The translations under genes and the position numbers were made by a program. A DNA stretch of 32,000 nt, taken from assembly GCF_018069705.1 (NCBI RefSeq), contig NZ_CP072943.1:1011260-1043259 (forward strand), in the 5' to 3' direction. This document shows, one piece after another, positions 7,464 to 24,814 of this stretch (its first letter is position 1; every line of letters starts with the position of its first letter). Source of the stretch: Aminithiophilus ramosus. GTDB lineage: Bacteria; Synergistota; Synergistia; Synergistales; Aminithiophilaceae. The notes below the pieces were generated by a model. The model searched no databases, was not told the DNA's origin, and saw only the letters and a list, made by a program, of their open reading frames with translations.

Positions 7464-8228
7464 TTGTTTCTGTGCCCTTTGTCTCCGCCGGGAAGGGGCT
7501 TTTCCCTTCTCCTTTTCGCCCTTCTCTTTTCCGTCCTTTCCGAAGGCACTCCCGCCCAGGGCGGGACGAATCTTCATATCCTTTCGGCGCCGGGACACCC
7601 CCTTTCGATCCTCCTCGACGAACGCGACGGCCTGATCCGTTCGGCCTATCTCCGCAGCCCGGCAGGGACGGAACCTCTCGACTCGCTCAAGGGGCATCGA
7701 TTGGTCCGGGACCACCGCAGCACACCCTATATCGACGCCGACTGGAAGCCCGACCTCCTCTGGCAACTCTCCTTCGCCCAGGACGACGCCAAAAGGGGTG
7801 TCGACCTCTGGATCGCCTATCTGTCGGGCCGCCCCCGTCTCTGGGTCGCCGAGAGTCCGACGGCGGCCACTCTTTGGGATGCGCTCTCCCTCAACGTCGA
7901 CATTCCCGAGGGAACGGCCCTTTACGTCTCTCCGGCCCTGCCACGCTACAGCGACGAGGAGCCGACCCGGGAGGGACGAACGCTCTCCTTCATCTACACC
8001 GTCGGCCTCACTCCCGACGGACCGGGTTTCACCATCGTCCCCGCCATCTACCGCCAGCTCCAGGAGATCACCCTTCTCGTTGCCCAGGCCGAGGGAGACG
8101 AGGTCCTTCGCCGGGGCTACGACAGCCTGGCCAAGGATTTCGGGACCATGTCCAAGGGGCAGCATCCCTCGGCGGAAGCGCTATCCAGCTTCACCTGGAA
8201 GAAGCTTCTCTACCGAGAATGGCCATGA
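7464..8228 (+). CDS. hypothetical secreted protein (N-terminal signal peptide)
   Basis: 254-aa ORF with a TTG start 8 nt after GAAGGGAGG. It has a hydrophobic N-terminus (LLLFALLFSVLSEGTPAQG), protein-like composition and high third-position GC. The opposite-strand ORF is G/R/D/E-rich, typical of an antisense shadow. No family recognised. Confidence 0.6.
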   Translation: MFLCPLSPPGRGFSLLLFALLFSVLSEGTPAQGGTNLHILSAPGHPLSILLDERDGLIRSAYLRSPAGTEPLDSLKGHRLVRDHRSTPYIDADWKPDLLWQLSFAQDDAKRGVDLWIAYLSGRPRLWVAESPTAATLWDALSLNVDIPEGTALYVSPALPRYSDEEPTREGRTLSFIYTVGLTPDGPGFTIVPAIYRQLQEITLLVAQAEGDEVLRRGYDSLAKDFGTMSKGQHPSAEALSSFTWKKLLYREWP

Positions 8229-8280
8229 TCGCGAGAAGAATGGGGGGATCCCGACGGGATCCCCCCATTCTTCTCGCGAT
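8228..8280. terminator. bidirectional hairpin between convergent genes (25-bp perfect stem, 3-nt loop)
   Basis: ATCGCGAGAAGAATGGGGGGATCCC (8228-8252) is the exact reverse complement of 8256-8280. It begins within the stop codon of the 7464-8228 gene and ends 6 nt before the stop of the 8286 gene. Confidence 0.7.
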
Positions 8281-8285
8281 CGGCC

Positions 8286-18451: not shown

Positions 18452-18966
18452 CGTCTGGCCTCCTCTTTCTTCTTCTCCTCCAGACGGCGGCGGACGAAGG
18501 GGGCGAGACCTCCCGCCTCGACCAGCTCCTGGAGAGAGGGGGGAAAGGGCGCCACGGAGAAGGTGACGGCCTTCGTTCTGTTCTGCACCGTCCCCGCCCG
18601 GGCGTCGACGACGACGACATCTCCTTCCTCGATGGAGGCCGCCGCCTCGGGCGAGACGACGATGGGCAGCCCCACGTTGAGGGCGTTGCGGAAGAAGATG
18701 CGGGCGAAGGAGGAGGCGATGACGCAGGAGATCCCCGCCCCCTTGATGGCCAGGGGGGCATGTTCGCGGCTGGAGCCGCAGCCGAAATTCTCGCCTCCGA
18801 CGATGACGTCGCCTGAGGCGATCTTGTTGACGAAGTCGGCGTCGGCATCTTCCATGCAGTGCTTGCCCAACTCGACGGCGTTGTCGGTGACGAGATAGCG
18901 GGCGGGGATGATCACGTCCGTGTCGATGTCATCGCCGAAGCGCCAGGCCCGGCCCTCAATGTTCAT
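18448..18966 (-). CDS. aconitase-superfamily hydro-lyase small subunit (LeuD-like)
   Basis: 172 aa with the GENFGCGSSREHA motif. It overlaps the large-subunit gene by 11 nt. Confidence 0.88.
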   Translation of the reverse strand: MNIEGRAWRFGDDIDTDVIIPARYLVTDNAVELGKHCMEDADADFVNKIASGDVIVGGENFGCGSSREHAPLAIKGAGISCVIASSFARIFFRNALNVGLPIVVSPEAAASIEEGDVVVVDARAGTVQNRTKAVTFSVAPFPPSLQELVEAGGLAPFVRRRLEEKKKEEARR

Positions 18967-20254
18967 CGCCTTCGACCTCCTTCAGTTCCTCTTCGCTCAG
19001 GATTTCCCGGGGATCGGTGATGTGCCCCGTAAGGGCCGTCGCCGCCGCCACGAGGGGGCTGGCCAGGTAGAGTTCGCTCCCGGGATGGCCCATGCGTCCC
19101 ACGAAGTTGCGGTTGCTCGTCGCGAGGCAGCGCTCGCCCGAGGCGAGAATGCCCATATGGCCGCCCAGGCAGGGTCCGCAGGTGGGCGTGCAGACGACGG
19201 CGCCCGCTTCGGCGAAGGTCGTCAGGTAACCTCGGCGGAGCGATTCGGACCAGACCTCGTAGGAGGCGGGAATGATGATGCAGCGCAGTCCGTCACGAAC
19301 CTGACGCCCCCGGAGAAGGCGGGCCGCCAGGGCCATGTCGCGGAGACGGCCGTTGGTGCAGGAGCCGATGAAGACCTGATCGACGTCCACGCCGGAGGCC
19401 TCGCCCACGGAGCGGACGTTGGCCGGGGAGTGGGGAAAGGCCACCTGAGGTTCGAGAGAGGTCACGTCGATTTCGACCGTCTCGGCGTAGAAGGCTCCCT
19501 CGTCGGGGAAAAGGGCCGTGAAGGGACGCGCGGCCCGGGCCCCGGCATAGGCGAGCGTCTTCTCGTCGGGGACGAAGAGGCCCGCCTTGGCTCCGCCCTC
19601 GACGGCCATGTTGGCCACGGTGAAACGGTCGTCCATGGGGAGATCGGCTAGGGCCCCTCCCTCGAACTGGAAGGCCTTGTAGCGGGCTCCCTGAGTCCCG
19701 AGACGGCCCAGAAGGGCCAGGATCAGGTCCTTTCCTGTGATCCAGGGACGACGCCTTCCCGAGAAAAGAACGCGGACCGTCGGCGGGACCATGAGCCACG
19801 ACTCGCCCAGGGCCCAGACGGCGGCCAGATCCGTCGACCCGACTCCCGTCGAGAAGGCCCCCAGGGCACCGCCGGTGCAGGTATGACTGTCGGCGCCGAA
19901 GACGAGATCGCCGGGGAGGATGTAGCCCTTTTCGGGAAGAAAGGCATGCTCGACGCCGACGCGCCCCACTTCCCAGTAGAGCATGCCCTGATCCTGAGCG
20001 AAGAGGCGGGCCGTCTTGGCCTGCTCGGCGGCGGCGATATCCTTGTTGGGCGTGAAATGATCGGGGAGAATGGCGCAGCGCTCCCTGTCGAAGACCTTCT
20101 CGGCACCCATGTCGCGGAAGGCGTTGATGGCCGGGGCGCCGGTGATGTCATTGGTGAAGGCGAAATCGACCTTGACGGAACAGATGGCCCCCACGTCGGC
20201 GGGATCGGGGCTATGGGAGGCGATGAGGGCCTCTGCCAGCGTTCTTTTTTTCAC
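18956..20254 (-). CDS. aconitase-superfamily hydro-lyase large subunit (LeuC/HacA-like)
   Basis: 432 aa with GADSHT, GSCTNGR and CGPCLG Fe-S cluster and substrate motifs. Confidence 0.9.
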   Translation of the reverse strand: MKKRTLAEALIASHSPDPADVGAICSVKVDFAFTNDITGAPAINAFRDMGAEKVFDRERCAILPDHFTPNKDIAAAEQAKTARLFAQDQGMLYWEVGRVGVEHAFLPEKGYILPGDLVFGADSHTCTGGALGAFSTGVGSTDLAAVWALGESWLMVPPTVRVLFSGRRRPWITGKDLILALLGRLGTQGARYKAFQFEGGALADLPMDDRFTVANMAVEGGAKAGLFVPDEKTLAYAGARAARPFTALFPDEGAFYAETVEIDVTSLEPQVAFPHSPANVRSVGEASGVDVDQVFIGSCTNGRLRDMALAARLLRGRQVRDGLRCIIIPASYEVWSESLRRGYLTTFAEAGAVVCTPTCGPCLGGHMGILASGERCLATSNRNFVGRMGHPGSELYLASPLVAAATALTGHITDPREILSEEELKEVEGDEH

Positions 20255-20363
20255 TCCATGTCACCTCTTTCACGTTTTTCGACGGAACGGGACGCTCTCG
20301 GACTCAGCTCGGCTCGGACGTGACGGGAAGCCCCCCTTTGAGCAAATTCCACGCATGAAGACG

Positions 20364-20398
20364 AAAAAGGCCGGGGTCCCTCTTCTGGGATCCCGGCC
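20364..20398 (-). terminator. intrinsic terminator (M20D gene terminator and/or attenuator of the downstream operon)
   Basis: On the minus strand, GGCCGGGATCCC, a 6-nt loop, GGGACCCCGGCC (11/12 pairs), then T5. It lies 110 nt upstream of the LeuC-like start and about 190 nt after the native M20D stop. Confidence 0.65.
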
Positions 20399-20558
20399 CT
20401 CGGACGCCGAAAGGCGCGCGGAGGCACGCCTCAGACAGCCTCGGGGGAGACCCCGAAGCCAATAAGTCGCCGCACGGAAGAGAACACCTTTTGTTGGAAC
20501 ATAACCCGATCTCCCTCCCGTCGAATTAACTGCAAGGCCCCTCAGGAAATTGTGACGT

Positions 20559-20587
20559 ATCCTAACGCCGCAGGTCCAATCTGTCAA
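20559..20587 (-). promoter_or_regulatory. candidate promoter TTGACA-N17-TAGGAT
   Basis: On the minus strand, TTGACA at 20587-20582 and TAGGAT at 20564-20559. The -35 overlaps the native TGA stop of the M20D gene and abuts the IS insertion point. Confidence 0.4.
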
Positions 20588-20603
20588 CCCCGGTTTCGGG
20601 CGA
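20588..20603. repeat. 16-bp direct repeat CCCCGGTTTCGGGCGA, copy a (left flank of IS copy 1)
   Basis: The same 16-mer is found at 22121-22136 and 23649-23664. A preceding A could make it 17 bp. One extra T (20604) separates it from IRL. Confidence 0.85.
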
Positions 20604-20604
20604 T

Positions 20605-22120
20605 TGTCGCCGGACAATGGTATTGTCACTCGTGAAGAGGACAGGGAAAATGTCACTTATGACGACCAGGAGAGACCTACTCATGAAGACAAAAGAAGCA
20701 AGGCGCTTGGGGTTGGTGGAAGAGGCTGTCGCGGGCAACCTGACGGTTCAGGAGGTGGCCGATCGGCTCGGTCTGAGCCGCCGTCAGGTCTTTCGGCTCA
20801 AACGACGCTACCGGGAAGAAGGAGCGCAGGGGCTCCTGCACAAGGGACGAGGCAAACCGTCCCGGCGCAGAATCTCTCAGGAGACACGGGATTTCGTCGT
20901 CAGTCTGGCCAAGGGTCTTTACAGGGATACGAGCTGTCAGCACATGGCCGAACTCCTTGCCGAAGAGCATGATCTCGTGCTGAGCGCCAAGAGCATCGCC
21001 CGTTTCCTTCGCGCGGAGAACCTGTCCCTCGTTCATCGCCACCGGGCCCCGAAGCGGCGTTCCCGCAGGGTCCGACGGTCCCGACGAGGCGATCTGGTCC
21101 AGATGGACGCCTCTCCTTTCGATTGGTTCGAGATCGGTGAGCGTTGCACTCTCCACGGCGTGGACGATGCCACAGGAGAGGTCCTCGGTCTGTGGATGGC
21201 CAGGAATGAGTGCCTCTTCGGCTACTTCCGCGTGCTCCGTCAGATGCTTGATCGCCACGGCGTGCCTCGCGAGCTTTACGCCGACCGCCACACCATCTTC
21301 CTTTCTCCCAAGTCGGAAAAACTGACGATCAAGGAGGAGCTGGAGGACTCGGCGCCTGTAACCCAGTTCGGCCGCGCTCTGGAGGCTCTCGGAACTCGCT
21401 ATGTCCCTGCAGGGTCTCCCCAGGCGAAGGGGCGGATCGAAAGGCTCTGGGGAACTCTTCAGGATCGTCTCGTCGTCGCCTTCCGACTGGCCGGAGTGAA
21501 AACGATCGAAGAGGCCAACGTCCTGCTCGCCGCCTACCCGGGAGAGGTCCATAACCCGAGGTTCGCTCGTCCTCCCGCAGAGGGGGCATCTGCCTTTCTC
21601 CCTCCGCCGGACGGACCCGCTCTCGATCTCCTCCTGACTCGCCAGACCGACCGGAAGGCCTCGGGAGACTCGACGATTTCCCTCGACGGAAAACAGTACG
21701 CCCTGATAGGCCCCCGCAGACGCCCCCTGCTTCTTGCCAGGGGACAGGCGGTCAAGGTCATCGAGAAGCTCGACGGGAAACTCCTGGCTCTTGTCCATGA
21801 CGGGCTCTACGATCTCGCAGCCGTCGACAAAGAGCCCCCTGCGACTCCCCCGCCTGTCATCGAGACGAAGACAGGCACTCCATGCAAAACGAAGAAGCAG
21901 AGGAAGCCGGCGGCAGACCATCCCTGGCGACAGAATCCCGCTCCTCCTGCCGCGGCGGTCGGCTCCGAGCAAGGGACGGGTTCCCCTCCCTAGAAGGACC
22001 TCCGCCGCGGAGGAAAGCCAAGGCGGGCTGTTGACGGGGGCGATTTCAGCCCCTCGAAAGCGACACTTTCATTGTCCCTCAGACCCTCTTTTTAGATGAC
22101 ATTTTTAGTGTCCCTTGACA
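20605..22120 (+). mobile_element. insertion sequence copy 1 (1516 bp; TGT ends; IS1202/ISNCY-like)
   Basis: IRL TGTCGCCGGACAATGGTATTGTCAC matches the reverse complement of the right end, TGTCAAGGGACACTAAAAATGTCAT, at 16/25 positions. It carries a single rve-type transposase gene and is flanked by the 16-bp repeat. Confidence 0.85.
20683..21993 (+). CDS. IS transposase (N-terminal HTH plus rve/DDE integrase core)
   Basis: ATG 20683 lies 9 nt after AGGAGA. HTH segment LTVQEVADRLGLSRRQVFRLKRRY. Catalytic core LVQMDASPFDW...ELYADRHTIF...SPQAKGRIERLWGTLQDRL, as in proteins usually annotated ISNCY-family transposases. Confidence 0.88.
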   Translation: MKTKEARRLGLVEEAVAGNLTVQEVADRLGLSRRQVFRLKRRYREEGAQGLLHKGRGKPSRRRISQETRDFVVSLAKGLYRDTSCQHMAELLAEEHDLVLSAKSIARFLRAENLSLVHRHRAPKRRSRRVRRSRRGDLVQMDASPFDWFEIGERCTLHGVDDATGEVLGLWMARNECLFGYFRVLRQMLDRHGVPRELYADRHTIFLSPKSEKLTIKEELEDSAPVTQFGRALEALGTRYVPAGSPQAKGRIERLWGTLQDRLVVAFRLAGVKTIEEANVLLAAYPGEVHNPRFARPPAEGASAFLPPPDGPALDLLLTRQTDRKASGDSTISLDGKQYALIGPRRRPLLLARGQAVKVIEKLDGKLLALVHDGLYDLAAVDKEPPATPPPVIETKTGTPCKTKKQRKPAADHPWRQNPAPPAAAVGSEQGTGSPP

Positions 22121-22136
22121 CCCCGGTTTCGGGCGA
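22121..22136. repeat. 16-bp direct repeat CCCCGGTTTCGGGCGA, copy b (shared junction between the two IS copies)
   Basis: It lies exactly between IRR of copy 1 (ends 22120) and IRL of copy 2 (starts 22137). Confidence 0.85.
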
Positions 22137-23648
22137 TGTCGCCGGACAATGGTATTGTCACTCGTGAAGAGGACAGGGAAAATGTCACTTATGACGACCA
22201 GGAGAGACCTACTCATGAAGACAAAAGAAGCAAGGCGCTTGGGGTTGGTGGAAGAGGCTGGGGCAACCTGACGGTTCAGGAGGTGGCCGATCGGCTCGGG
22301 CTGAGCCGCCGTCAGGTCTTTCGGCTCAAACGACGCTACCGGGAAGAGGGAGCGCAGGGGCTCCTGCACAAGGGACGAGGCAAACCGTCCCGGCGCAGAA
22401 TCTGTCAGGAGACACGGGATTTCGTCGTCAGTCTGGCCAAGGGTCTTTACAGGGATACGAGCTGTCAGCACATGGCCGAACTCCTTGCCGAAGAGCATGA
22501 TCTCGTGCTGAGCGCCAAGAGCATCGCCCGTTTCCTTCGCGCGGAGAACCTGTCCCTCGTTCATCGCCACCGGGCCCCGAAGCGGCGTTCCCGCAGGGTC
22601 CGACGGTCCCGACGAGGCGATCTGGTCCAGATGGACGCCTCTCCTTTCGATTGGTTCGAGATCGGTGAGCGTTGCACTCTCCACGGCGTGGACGATGCCA
22701 CAGGAGAGGTCCTCGGTCTGTGGATGGCCAGGAATGAGTGCCTCTTCGGCTACTTCCGCGTGCTCCGTCAGATGCTTGATCGCCACGGCGTGCCTCGCGA
22801 GCTTTACGCCGACCGCCACACCATCTTCCTTTCTCCCAAGTCGGAAAAACTGACGATCAAGGAGGAGCTGGAGGACTCGGCGCCTGTAACCCAGTTCGGC
22901 CGCGCTCTGGAGGTTCTCGGAACTCGCTATGTCCCTGCAGGGTCTCCCCAGGCGAAGGGGCGGATCGAAAGGCTCTGGGGAACTCTTCAGGATCGTCTCG
23001 TCGTCGCCTTCCGACTGGCCGGAGTGAAAACGATCGAAGAGGCCAACGTCCTGCTCGCCGCCTACCCGGGAGAGGTCCATAACCCGAGGTTCGCTCGTCC
23101 TCCCGCAGAGGGGGCATCTGCCTTTCTCCCTCCGCCGGACGGCCCCGCTCTCGATCTCCTCCTGACTCGCCAGACCGACCGGAAGGCCTCGGGAGACTCG
23201 ACGATTTCCCTCGACGGAAAACAGTACTCCCTGATAGGCCCCCGCAGACGCCCCCTGCTTCTTGCCAGGGGACAGGCGGTCAAGGTCATCGAGAAGCTCG
23301 ACGGGAAACTCCTGGCTCTTGTCCATGACGGGCTCTACGATCTCGCAGCCGTCGACAAAGAGCCCCCTGCGACTCCCCCGCCTGTCATCGAGACGAAGAC
23401 AGGCACTCCATGCAAAACGAAGAAGCAGAGGAAGCCGGCGGCAGACCATCCCTGGCGACAGAATCCCGCTCCTCCTGCCGCGGCGGTCGGCTCCGAGCAA
23501 GGGACGGGTTCCCCTCCCTAGAAGGACCTCCGCCGCGGAGGAAAGCCAAGGCGGGCTGTTGACGGGGGCGATTTCAGCCCCTCGAAAGCGACACTTTCAT
23601 TGTCCCTCAGACCCTCTTTTTAGATGACATTTTTAGTGTCCCTTGACA
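22137..23648 (+). mobile_element. insertion sequence copy 2 (1512 bp)
   Basis: Same ends as copy 1. It differs from copy 1 by a 4-nt deletion near 22259 and at least six substitutions seen by eye. Confidence 0.85.
22215..23521 (+). pseudogene. IS transposase, frameshifted by a 4-nt deletion after codon 15
   Basis: The start equivalent to copy 1 (ATG 22215) reads MKTKEARRLGLVEEAGAT then TGA at 22269. The rest of the transposase continues in another frame (track ORF 22115-23521). Confidence 0.75.
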
Positions 23649-24814
23649 CCCCGGTTTCGGGCGAGAAAGGCCAGGGCCGAGGCGGCGTAGTAGGCCACGC
23701 CGCAGGGAAGGGCCCTTTCGTCGATGTCGAAGCGAGGATGATGATGGGGCCATAGGGCGGCCCCGTCGCTGCCGACGCCCAAGAAGGCAAAGTGAGCCGG
23801 GACATGGCCGCCGTAAAAGGCGAAATCCTCGCTGACGGCGACGGGAGCCATGGAGACGATCCGATCGGCGCCAAAAAGGGCCGCGACGACGGAAGAAGCC
23901 GCTTCGGCAAGCTCGGCATCGTTCGCCGTCACGGGACAGAGCTCGTCGTAGGTCACCATCGCCTCGGCCCCGAAGGCCGAGGCCGTCGACTGGGCGACAC
24001 GTTCCACGCGAGCCCGGGTCCCCTTCTGAAGCTCTTCATCGAAGGCGCGCACCGTTCCTTCGATGCGCCCCTCCCCTGCGATGATGTTCCAGAGGGATCC
24101 GCAGCGCAGCGTCCCAAGGGAGAGGACAAGGGACTTGAGGGGATCCGTCTCGCGGCTTACGACGGTCTGGAGGTTCATGACGACGGCGGAAGCGGCCACG
24201 ACGGCATCGACGGTCTGATGAGGCTTTCCGGCATGACCGCCCCGACCTCGGATGTCGATGGCGAGGCGATCGCAGGAGGCCATGCGAGGCCCGGCCTCGA
24301 CGGAAAAGGTTCCCGAGGGGAGATCGATCCAGACATGAAGACCGAAGAGGGCCTCGACACCCTCCAGAGCGCCGCCGTCGACCATCAGGCGGGCTCCGGC
24401 CGAGATCTCCTCTCCGGGCTGAAAAAGGAGACGGACCGTGCCCGCAAAGGACCGTCGCCGCGCGAGAATCCCTGCGGCTCCGAGGAGCATGGCCGTATGG
24501 GCATCGTGACCGCAGCCATGCATCAGCCCCGGGCGACATGAGGCATAGTCTTTTTCGCTTTCCTCCTGAAGGACGAGGGCGTCCATATCGGCCCTGAGGG
24601 CCACGACAGGTCCGTCAGCGTCGCCGACGATGTCGGCGACGACGGCCGTCTCCCCCAGGCGGCGAGGAGCCAGTCCCAGGCGTCGCAACTCCCTCTCGAC
24701 GGAAGCGGCCGTCTCGAATTCCTTGAGGCTCTCCTCGGGATGACGATGGAAATGGCGCCTCAAAGTCCGAACCTCTTCCTCCATGGACAGGGCCTCAAGA
24801 GCGATCTCTTTCAT
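23633..24814 (-). CDS. M20D family amidohydrolase (N-acyl-amino-acid / hippurate hydrolase-like); the last four codons and the stop are supplied by the IS end
   Basis: 393 aa with MHGCGHDAHTAMLLGAA and the overall M20D pattern. GGAGGAGG RBS. The C-terminus ...ARNRG|VKGH* crosses into IRR of IS copy 2. Confidence 0.88.
   Translation of the reverse strand: MKEIALEALSMEEEVRTLRRHFHRHPEESLKEFETAASVERELRRLGLAPRRLGETAVVADIVGDADGPVVALRADMDALVLQEESEKDYASCRPGLMHGCGHDAHTAMLLGAAGILARRRSFAGTVRLLFQPGEEISAGARLMVDGGALEGVEALFGLHVWIDLPSGTFSVEAGPRMASCDRLAIDIRGRGGHAGKPHQTVDAVVAASAVVMNLQTVVSRETDPLKSLVLSLGTLRCGSLWNIIAGEGRIEGTVRAFDEELQKGTRARVERVAQSTASAFGAEAMVTYDELCPVTANDAELAEAASSVVAALFGADRIVSMAPVAVSEDFAFYGGHVPAHFAFLGVGSDGAALWPHHHPRFDIDERALPCGVAYYAASALAFLARNRGVKGH
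23649..23664. repeat. 16-bp direct repeat CCCCGGTTTCGGGCGA, copy c (right flank of IS copy 2)
   Basis: It lies inside the 3' end of the M20D gene, where the minus strand encodes ...ARNRG. Confidence 0.85.

Follow-up and report, generated by a model that had tools for sequence, protein, structure and literature searches.

Head-to-tail IS1202-family insertion sequences in Aminithiophilus ramosus point to a sigma70-type promoter as the insertion landmark

The 32,000-nucleotide stretch of Aminithiophilus ramosus DNA analyzed here (contig NZ_CP072943.1, positions 1,011,260 to 1,043,259; hereafter the window) carries a head-to-tail pair of insertion sequences (IS) beside the predicted promoter of a leuC-like operon. 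The element, whose source organism belongs to the Synergistales, is by its sequence a member of the IS1202 family (ISNCY_2) with a target site duplication (TSD) of 16-17 bp. The pair is very probably the product of two successive, independent insertions at one promoter, made by an IS subgroup that homes to sigma70-type promoters.

The 16-mer CCCCGGTTTCGGGCGA occurs exactly three times in the window, starting at 20588, 22121 and 23649, with a chance expectation of 0.09 (none of 100 shuffles gave three). Each occurrence abuts an IS end, as an earlier note, made from the sequence without database searches, had described. The layout is direct repeat (DR)-IS-DR-IS-DR, with two ~1.5-kb copies denoted W1 (1516 bp) and W2 (1512 bp) that share TGTCGCC at the start and CCCTTGACA at the end; no third copy is found elsewhere in the window. 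The differences between the copies that the note had listed were confirmed in a full alignment: six positions are substituted, W2 lacks 4 nt, and one additional T stands at 20604. The deleted TCGC is equivalent to W1 20729-20732 and falls between 22260 and 22261, and its loss shifts the frame of the W2 transposase after 27 codons. The 17-mer CCCCGGTTTCGGGCGAT is present twice, at 20588-20604 and 22121-22137; the perfect duplication around W1 measures 17 bp and that around W2 16 bp, the two being nested.

Features of the tandem insertion and its host site (positions in the window)
Feature	Coordinates	Strand	Basis or remark
Aconitase/3-isopropylmalate dehydratase large subunit, first gene past the promoter	18956..20254	-	Pfam Aconitase; NCBIfam PRK00402/LEU2
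Predicted sigma70-type promoter of the leuC-like operon, proposed landmark	20559..20587	-	promoter scan 10/12
Left 17-bp repeat of W1, CCCCGGTTTCGGGCGAT	20588..20604		identical 17-mer at 22121-22137
IS copy W1, promoter-proximal	20605..22120	+	TGTCGCC...CCCTTGACA; inverted-repeat match 16/26
Putative promoter-like site in the W1 left end, TTGTCA-17-GAAAAT	20623..20651	+	promoter scan 9/12
W1 transposase reading frame, 436 aa from ATG 20683	20683..21993	+	NCBIfam NF033594
Middle 16-mer: W1 right repeat (with T 22137) and W2 left repeat	22121..22136
IS copy W2, promoter-distal	22137..23648	+	transposase frame to stop at 23521
M20 amidohydrolase gene	23633..24814	-	last 5 codons are the target 16-mer
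W2 right 16-bp repeat, then original host GAAAGG	23649..23664

The window promoter consists of a -35 TTGACA (20587-20582; TGTCAA on the top strand), a 17-bp spacer and a -10 TAGGAT (20564-20559), and is predicted to fire leftward, away from the IS. The uninterrupted site is seen in five contigs from 98%-identical strains (L085-L089), in which GGCCTTTC, TCGCCCGAAACCGGGG and TTGACAGATTGGACCTGCGGCGTTAGGATAC follow each other directly, with a single 16-mer and no IS. Thus the 16-mer is duplicated target and not a part of the IS, and the empty site that had been predicted, TCTGTCAACCCCGGTTTCGGGCGAGAAAGGCC, is found verbatim in related strains. TTGACA-17-TAGGAT stands directly after TCGCCCGAAACCGGGG in these contigs, and their gene order is M20 - aconitase - aconitase_C - Iso_dh. 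A contig from a 92%-identity strain (L090) keeps both promoter hexamers, with a changed spacer. The original stop codon of the M20 gene, TGA, sits within the -35 hexamer of the next operon's promoter (20582-20587). The insertion replaced this stop, such that the open reading frame (ORF) enters the IS end and gains four residues (VKGH), giving 393 aa versus the 389 aa of homologues with 98% identity.

In the sister genome CP074691 ('Aminirod propionatiphilus') the flanks of this IS are GGGGAGGATAGCGTTT (L001), GTTTGCGGTCCCGCCC (L002), GACGGACGAAGCGAAA (L003) and CGCCTCTGAGCCATTCG (L004), repeats of 16-17 bp that are mutually unrelated in sequence. Duplications of this exact IS measure 16 bp in W2, L001, L002 and L003 and 17 bp in W1 and L004. 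The note had proposed sequence-specific targeting of the 16-mer or of its small CCCG-GTTT-CGGG hairpin, an idea suggested by the fact that both window copies are flanked by the same 16-mer. This is almost certainly wrong, because the repeats at the other five sites of this IS, like those at 35 sites of relatives, show no relation in sequence. The left repeat is directly preceded by GTCAA in the window and in four of the five sister-genome sites, and by GCAA in the fifth. Read on the bottom strand, these flanks give TTGACC-17-TACAAT (L001), TTGACA-16-TATCAT (L002), TTGCGT-16-TGgTACAAT (L003) and TTGACA-17-TAGAAT (L004). Each of these promoters, as well as that of the window, is predicted to fire away from the IS toward a gene on the same strand, and an independent promoter scanner called the L004 site (11/12) in addition to the window site.

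Relatives with 36-47% protein identity were retrieved at 80 loci by an alignment-based genome scan; they come from Bacillota, Synergistota, Chloroflexota and others. A boundary finder based on three features alone (TGT/ACA tips, identity of the inverted repeats, a direct repeat in the flanks) resolved 36 of the 80, all with 15-19-bp repeats. Together with the window and L001-L004 they make 41 independent sites, comprising 23 distinct 12-mers at the left inverted repeat (IRL) and at least 20 related ISs. The promoter criterion held exactly at the repeat boundary in 28 of the 41 sites. Among control positions it held in 0.10% of flank positions overall (p = 4e-74) and in 0.30% of those free of ORFs (p = 4e-61). 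A shift of one nucleotide abolishes the signal: the offset scan gave 28 sites at offset 0 and a maximum of one at any other offset. A -10 element lies 16-18 bp after TTGAC in 21 of 22 IS sites (95%) versus 27% of ORF-free TTGAC controls (p = 1.6e-11), and the sites without TTGAC carry one in 15 of 19 cases versus 10.8% of controls (p = 8e-12).

The position matrix of the sites is a classical sigma70 logo, with TTGACA, an extended -10 TG (positions 21-22), TAnAAT (24-29) and a purine at the expected start, and holds hardly any information within the repeat, which further argues against a signal in the 16-mer. The -35 is conserved at T 90%, T 90% and G 83%. Of 38 sites, 32 have a 17-bp spacer, and the extended -10 TG is seen in 15 of 36. 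Even where no -35 is recognizable (GTGCTT, TGGTAT, TAGAAA, TTTGAA), an extended -10 promoter is still found in exact register. On the promoter side, the closest long ORF runs away from the IS in 27 of 34 sites, compared with 17:20 on the other flank, and the right flank gives background signal only. Across relatives the repeat length varies between 15 and 19 bp and the -35 box always adjoins the repeat; it is therefore the far cut that shifts in position, the one on the promoter side being constant. Five elements that have lost their repeat (L009, L034, L049, L062, L081) keep GTCAA 16-18 bp outside IRL. As to promoters formed by the IS itself, an outward hybrid of the tip of the right inverted repeat (IRR), the repeat and the flank occurs at only 4 of the 41 sites and has little support, and a circle-junction promoter with a 16-17-bp spacer is not evident, the IRL starting with TGTCGC.

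Two further loci showed other arrangements. At 2640-6190 of L026 one family member is nested in another with an 18-bp repeat, TGGGGTAGTTTATCCAAC, which adjoins a promoter-like TTGTAT-17-TATACT that lies antisense in the disrupted transposase gene; a 48-bp extra left-end fragment is also present. A 1.3-kb metagenome contig (L092, 267-291), met in a scan with the 25-nt left end, holds the first 25 nt only, followed by unrelated sequence, and may be a solo end or a chimeric contig.

In the mechanism that we propose, elements of the subgroup would ignore the duplicated 16-17 bp and home to the sigma70-type promoter. The promoter-side edge of the duplication meets the -35 hexamer and the other cut falls 15-19 bp further upstream, with IRL toward the promoter and the transposase gene directed away from it. 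Promoter and duplicated stretch (about -36 to -52) would both survive the insertion, hence the resident copy would again have a complete target on its promoter side, open to a further insertion. A second insertion would then yield promoter-DR-IS(new)-DR-IS(old)-DR, and the newest copy would be the one nearest the promoter. In the window, W2 would have inserted first with a 16-bp stagger, and W1 later at the same promoter with a 17-bp stagger reaching 1 nt into W2; the extra T at 20604 would thus be accounted for, the final T of the repeat being copied from the first base of W2. The opposite order is disfavored because the extra T would then have no source. We infer the order W2 then W1, by which the frameshifted W2, the distal copy, would be the older one.

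Other arrays have the same build. The triple array L004 reads GTCAA-[17]-IS-[17]-IS-[17]-IS-[17], with the same 17-mer four times, and a double array of a different IS in a long-read metagenome-assembled genome (MAG) of Bacillota (L043) reads GTCAA-[16]-IS-[16]-IS-[16]. In L043 the proximal copy has 35 private substitutions and the distal copy two; the distal copy also carries two deletions, which truncate its transposase. No array of clearly different family members sharing one repeat was found: L026 is nested, L069 is rearranged and L059 holds no tandem. In addition, the single copy in L003 (4172-4189) combines its 16-bp repeat with two additional bases, 'TG', which stand at the left junction alone and equal the start of the IS. 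An 18-bp second stagger, with later recombination between the two copies, may have left this scar.

The earlier note had judged the pair to be neither a trivial assembly duplication nor a very recent segmental duplication, and the data support this, as well as a second insertion into an occupied site. A false duplication of one copy by the assembler is extremely improbable. Repeats are error-prone in assemblies, but the copies differ at seven places, one of them a 4-nt indel, and are each bounded by a separate perfect duplication; equivalent arrays are present in an independent complete genome and in the long-read MAG.

The note had offered as its alternative a transposase-made (IS)2 dimer that became fixed, as known from IS30, IS21 and IS911. 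Such dimers resemble the pair in their head-to-tail copies and IRR-spacer-IRL junction, and the family probably transposes by copy-out-paste-in. However, a dimer leaves the nested 17/16-bp duplications, the extra T, the two sequence lineages and the triple array unexplained. Classical dimers, on whose own ends the transposase acts, are highly unstable, with spacers of a few (2-3) bp and a single outer TSD, whereas here the spacer is the 16-17-bp target duplication (16 bp in the window) and each copy has its own perfect TSD. We regard a fixed dimer as very unlikely.

A local duplication of one copy with later divergence, whether by unequal crossing-over at the 16-bp repeats, by slippage during replication or by homologous re-integration of an excised IS circle that carries the 16-bp flank, is improbable, if less so than the dimer. 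It would give DR-IS-DR-IS-DR, and ISKpn21 circles whose ends are joined by a spacer of flank length are documented (bioRxiv 10.1101/2022.12.17.520857). Against it, such an event copies junctions exactly, and the nested 17/16-bp repeats would need an extra, precisely placed 1-nt event. Moreover, of the seven places at which W1 and W2 differ, at least four (columns 168, 216 and 272 and the 4-nt deletion) are not private but shared with sister-genome copies at other loci, and a fifth (column 1099, A->S) matches the paralogue P0123. The private substitutions of L043 do not fit the clock-like divergence that would follow a duplication, and homologous recombination works poorly on repeats of only 16 bp.

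Several observations weigh against two independent insertions at a promoter landmark. Three variants (a deletion of ATT, T887 and G1140) are common to W1 and W2 and absent from all six sister-genome copies read, which would fit local duplication or gene conversion between neighbors. Extra nucleotides at the left junction could also have come along with a donor flank; in L005 and L041, two relatives that are old and mutated, the terminal base is mismatched and other than T. For the exact IS six sites were read (window and sister genome), a small sample, and 2 of the 41 sites (L022, L058) show no promoter. As to what reads the landmark, the role of RNA polymerase is argued from sequence statistics only, and direct reading of DNA is possible, the end-binding motif of the transposase, nTGACA, resembling the -35.

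On this last question we lean slightly toward the promoter being read through bound RNA polymerase holoenzyme rather than as bare DNA. This is favored because the -10, the extended -10 TG, the start purine and the 17-bp spacer are in phase even without a -35, because a -10 accompanies 95% of TTGAC IS sites versus 27% of intergenic TTGAC, and because the TTGACA tip is family-wide, yet ISKpn21 targets Xer sites. Direct reading of promoter DNA is possible but distinctly less probable. According to this alternative, helix-turn-helix (HTH) domains that bind nTGACA would take the -35 TTGACA as a further site ~22 bp outside IRL: the IS ends contain TGTCA(C/T/A) repeats ~20 bp apart, and the host TGTCAA extends this array at 22-23 bp. 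In line with it, the -35 in compilations of E. coli promoters is less conserved than at the IS sites. It does not explain why the downstream elements are in phase and a 17-bp spacer is preferred, nor why sites with no recognizable -35 keep a -10 at the right distance; ISKpn21, with the same TTGACA tip, goes to Xer sites, so that the tip motif does not set the target. The related idea that the -35 is recognized as a mimic of the IS's own TTGACA tip is weakened by the same fact. A comparison of the N-terminal HTH with sigma70 region 4 gave similarity below threshold and generic.

Returning to RNA polymerase, we see about an even chance that the whole 15-19-bp-TSD subgroup uses the promoter-bound housekeeping holoenzyme as target selector, inserting in fixed orientation immediately upstream of the -35. 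The TSD classes of the IS1202 family (5-6, 15-17 and 27-28 bp) are spaced ~11 bp apart, about one helical turn, which suggests a single docking geometry, re-spaced by subgroup-specific indels.

The family assignment made in the note, IS1202/ISNCY with a long TSD, is supported by the match of the W1 transposase to NCBIfam NF033594 (ISNCY_2; 366.2 bits, cutoff 250) and by the 16-17-bp TSD. The same protein falls below the cutoffs of the IS481 (108.5 vs 224), IS630, IS3 and IS21 models. Copies measure 1512-1519 bp and encode a single transposase of 436-459 aa; further in-frame ATGs lie upstream of the W1 start at 20617, 20650 and 20665. The ends are 5'-TGT...ACA-3' (TGTCGCCGGACA...TGTCCCTTGACA; inverted-repeat identity 16/26), with an inner TGTCAC at IS positions 21-26 and an inner TGTCAT 20-25 from the right tip. 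Regarding the description as a 436-aa HTH plus rve transposase, the length holds and Pfam detects N-terminal HTH domains, but not the rve domain at E<=0.001. An alignment with 32 homologues leaves D142 (QMDAS), D161-D162 (DDATG), D201, E253 and Q260 (E+7) invariant, residues that are hallmarks of the family. Placement in an ISTde1-like subgroup would follow from the family model together with TSD length. The ISAba32 subgroup is defined by a 5-6-bp TSD and by insertion 5 bp from the XerC arm of an xrs, whereas here the TSD is 16-17 bp and promoters form the left flanks. Unlike in the IS1202 subgroup proper with its 27-28-bp TSD, repeats at the 41 sites do not exceed 19 bp, in a search that allowed up to 30. 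The promoter-like site in the left end has a W2 counterpart at 22155-22183 and is predicted to read into the transposase gene.

The W1 transposase is identical to P0129 (RefSeq WP_274374465.1), and an A. ramosus protein 99% identical to it belongs to a cluster of 52 sequence variants that includes 'Aminirod propionatiphilus'; the element is therefore multicopy in these genomes. Both window copies (W1 21161-21175, W2 22689-22703) lack the ATT codon of a nearly invariant Ile in HG(V/A)IDDATG, adjoining the conserved DD pair, and both carry an R->L change (AFRLAG). Ile and Arg are present in 6/6 sister-genome copies and in most A. ramosus paralogues; thus even the 'intact' W1 transposase may be impaired, and the element may be mobilized in trans. 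The frameshifting 4-nt deletion is also found in L001 (3855-5369), hence is not private to W2, and apparently in the 412-413-aa proteins P0122 (three accessions, two genomes) and P0126. Since the deletion is shared beyond W2, a frameshifted lineage appears to have spread, presumably mobilized by intact copies. Two different transposase variants of A. ramosus, QTX32760.1 (P0126) and QTX32761.1 (P0122), have consecutive accessions, which suggests that a further head-to-tail pair may lie elsewhere in the genome of the window.

Outside the element, ~300 nt (20255-20558) separate the predicted promoter from the leuC-like start codon, in which Rfam gave no leader RNA or riboswitch at E<=1. At 8227-8281, the arms of a 27-nt inverted repeat (GATCGCGAGAAGAATGGGGGGATCCCG / CGGGATCCCCCCATTCTTCTCGCGATC) match perfectly and are separated by a gap of 1 nt; such length and perfection are unusual for a terminator.

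The element adds a member to a known family, and the tandem is the known phenomenon of a regenerated target in a new subgroup. A sigma70 promoter as IS landmark appears to be new: the searched literature, outside which most subscription journals lie, yielded no account of such targeting, whether for these or for other bacterial ISs, and by that literature this would be the first promoter-homing bacterial IS group. The long target duplications of the group would gain a meaning as the product of insertion at fixed geometry beside a promoter. Such a site would follow a safe-haven logic, in which no gene or core promoter is lost and the host promoter fires away from the transposase gene, and it would account for the pile-up of these elements in head-to-tail arrays. 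In organisms without transcript maps, each insertion would also locate an active sigma70-type promoter with base-pair precision. If RNA polymerase is the selector, the transposase would be a candidate tool for promoter-directed DNA insertion, and a new interface between transposase and RNA polymerase would be implied.

The IS1202 family comprises three TSD classes, 5-6, 15-17 and 27-28 bp, and the authors who described the ISKpn21 arrays state that the ISTde1 and IS1202 subgroups showed no targeting (bioRxiv 10.1101/2022.12.17.520857). Members are ~1.3-1.75 kb long, with a single transposase of ~394-507 aa and an inner transposase-site repeat near each end, and the transposase is TnsB-like (Harmer and Hall). 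By description, ISTde1, ISHahy13, ISCARN53/62/63, ISShha1 and ISVisp7 resemble our element in their 16-17-bp TSD, TGT...ACA ends, imperfect inverted repeats of ~24-26 bp, length of ~1.3-1.75 kb and one transposase of ~400-500 aa; the searched literature held no report of target preference or tandem occupancy for them. The statement in the note that tandem occupancy had not been highlighted stands for this 16-17-bp subgroup, but arrays are described in the sister ISAba32 subgroup, where ISKpn21 forms arrays of two and four copies at Xer sites with a shared 5-bp repeat and the proximal copy newest (bioRxiv 10.1101/2022.12.17.520857).

ISKpn21, ISAjo2 and ISAba32, which insert at XerC/D sites (xrs, dif, pdif), are the closest parallel. 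They belong to the same family, are oriented with IRL to the landmark, have a duplication that adjoins it, end in the right tip TTGACA and, the landmark surviving, form head-to-tail arrays with one DR between copies and the proximal copy newest. They differ in the landmark and the duplication, a Xer site and 5-6 bp there versus a sigma70 promoter and 15-19 bp here. As a positive control, plasmid NZ_CP056182.1 (L093, 2371-6260) contains two tandem ISKpn21 copies with the shared 5-bp repeat TAGAT at the Xer site TTCAACATAA-GGTTCA-TTATGCGCACT, the IS lying 5 bp from TTATGCGCACT, the XerC arm; the published behavior of the sister subgroup is thus independently reproduced. The plasmid relatives L094 and L095 have no clear element boundaries.

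Similarly, Tn7 at attTn7 (TnsB with TnsD) inserts in one orientation, at a fixed distance from its site, in a 'safe haven' that keeps the host gene. Unlike our element, which encodes a transposase only and reuses its site, Tn7 has separate target selectors and target immunity. The yeast element Ty3 integrates at Pol III start sites via TFIIIB, by a proven protein contact. It is alike in that the transcription-initiation machinery or its site sets integration at a fixed promoter distance, and unlike in being a eukaryotic long-terminal-repeat retroelement with an integrase, whereas here the role of RNA polymerase is only inferred. If that role holds for the whole 15-19-bp-TSD subgroup, these ISs would be a bacterial DNA-transposon counterpart of Ty3 and TFIIIB, in parallel to the XerC/D-bound sites of the sister subgroup.

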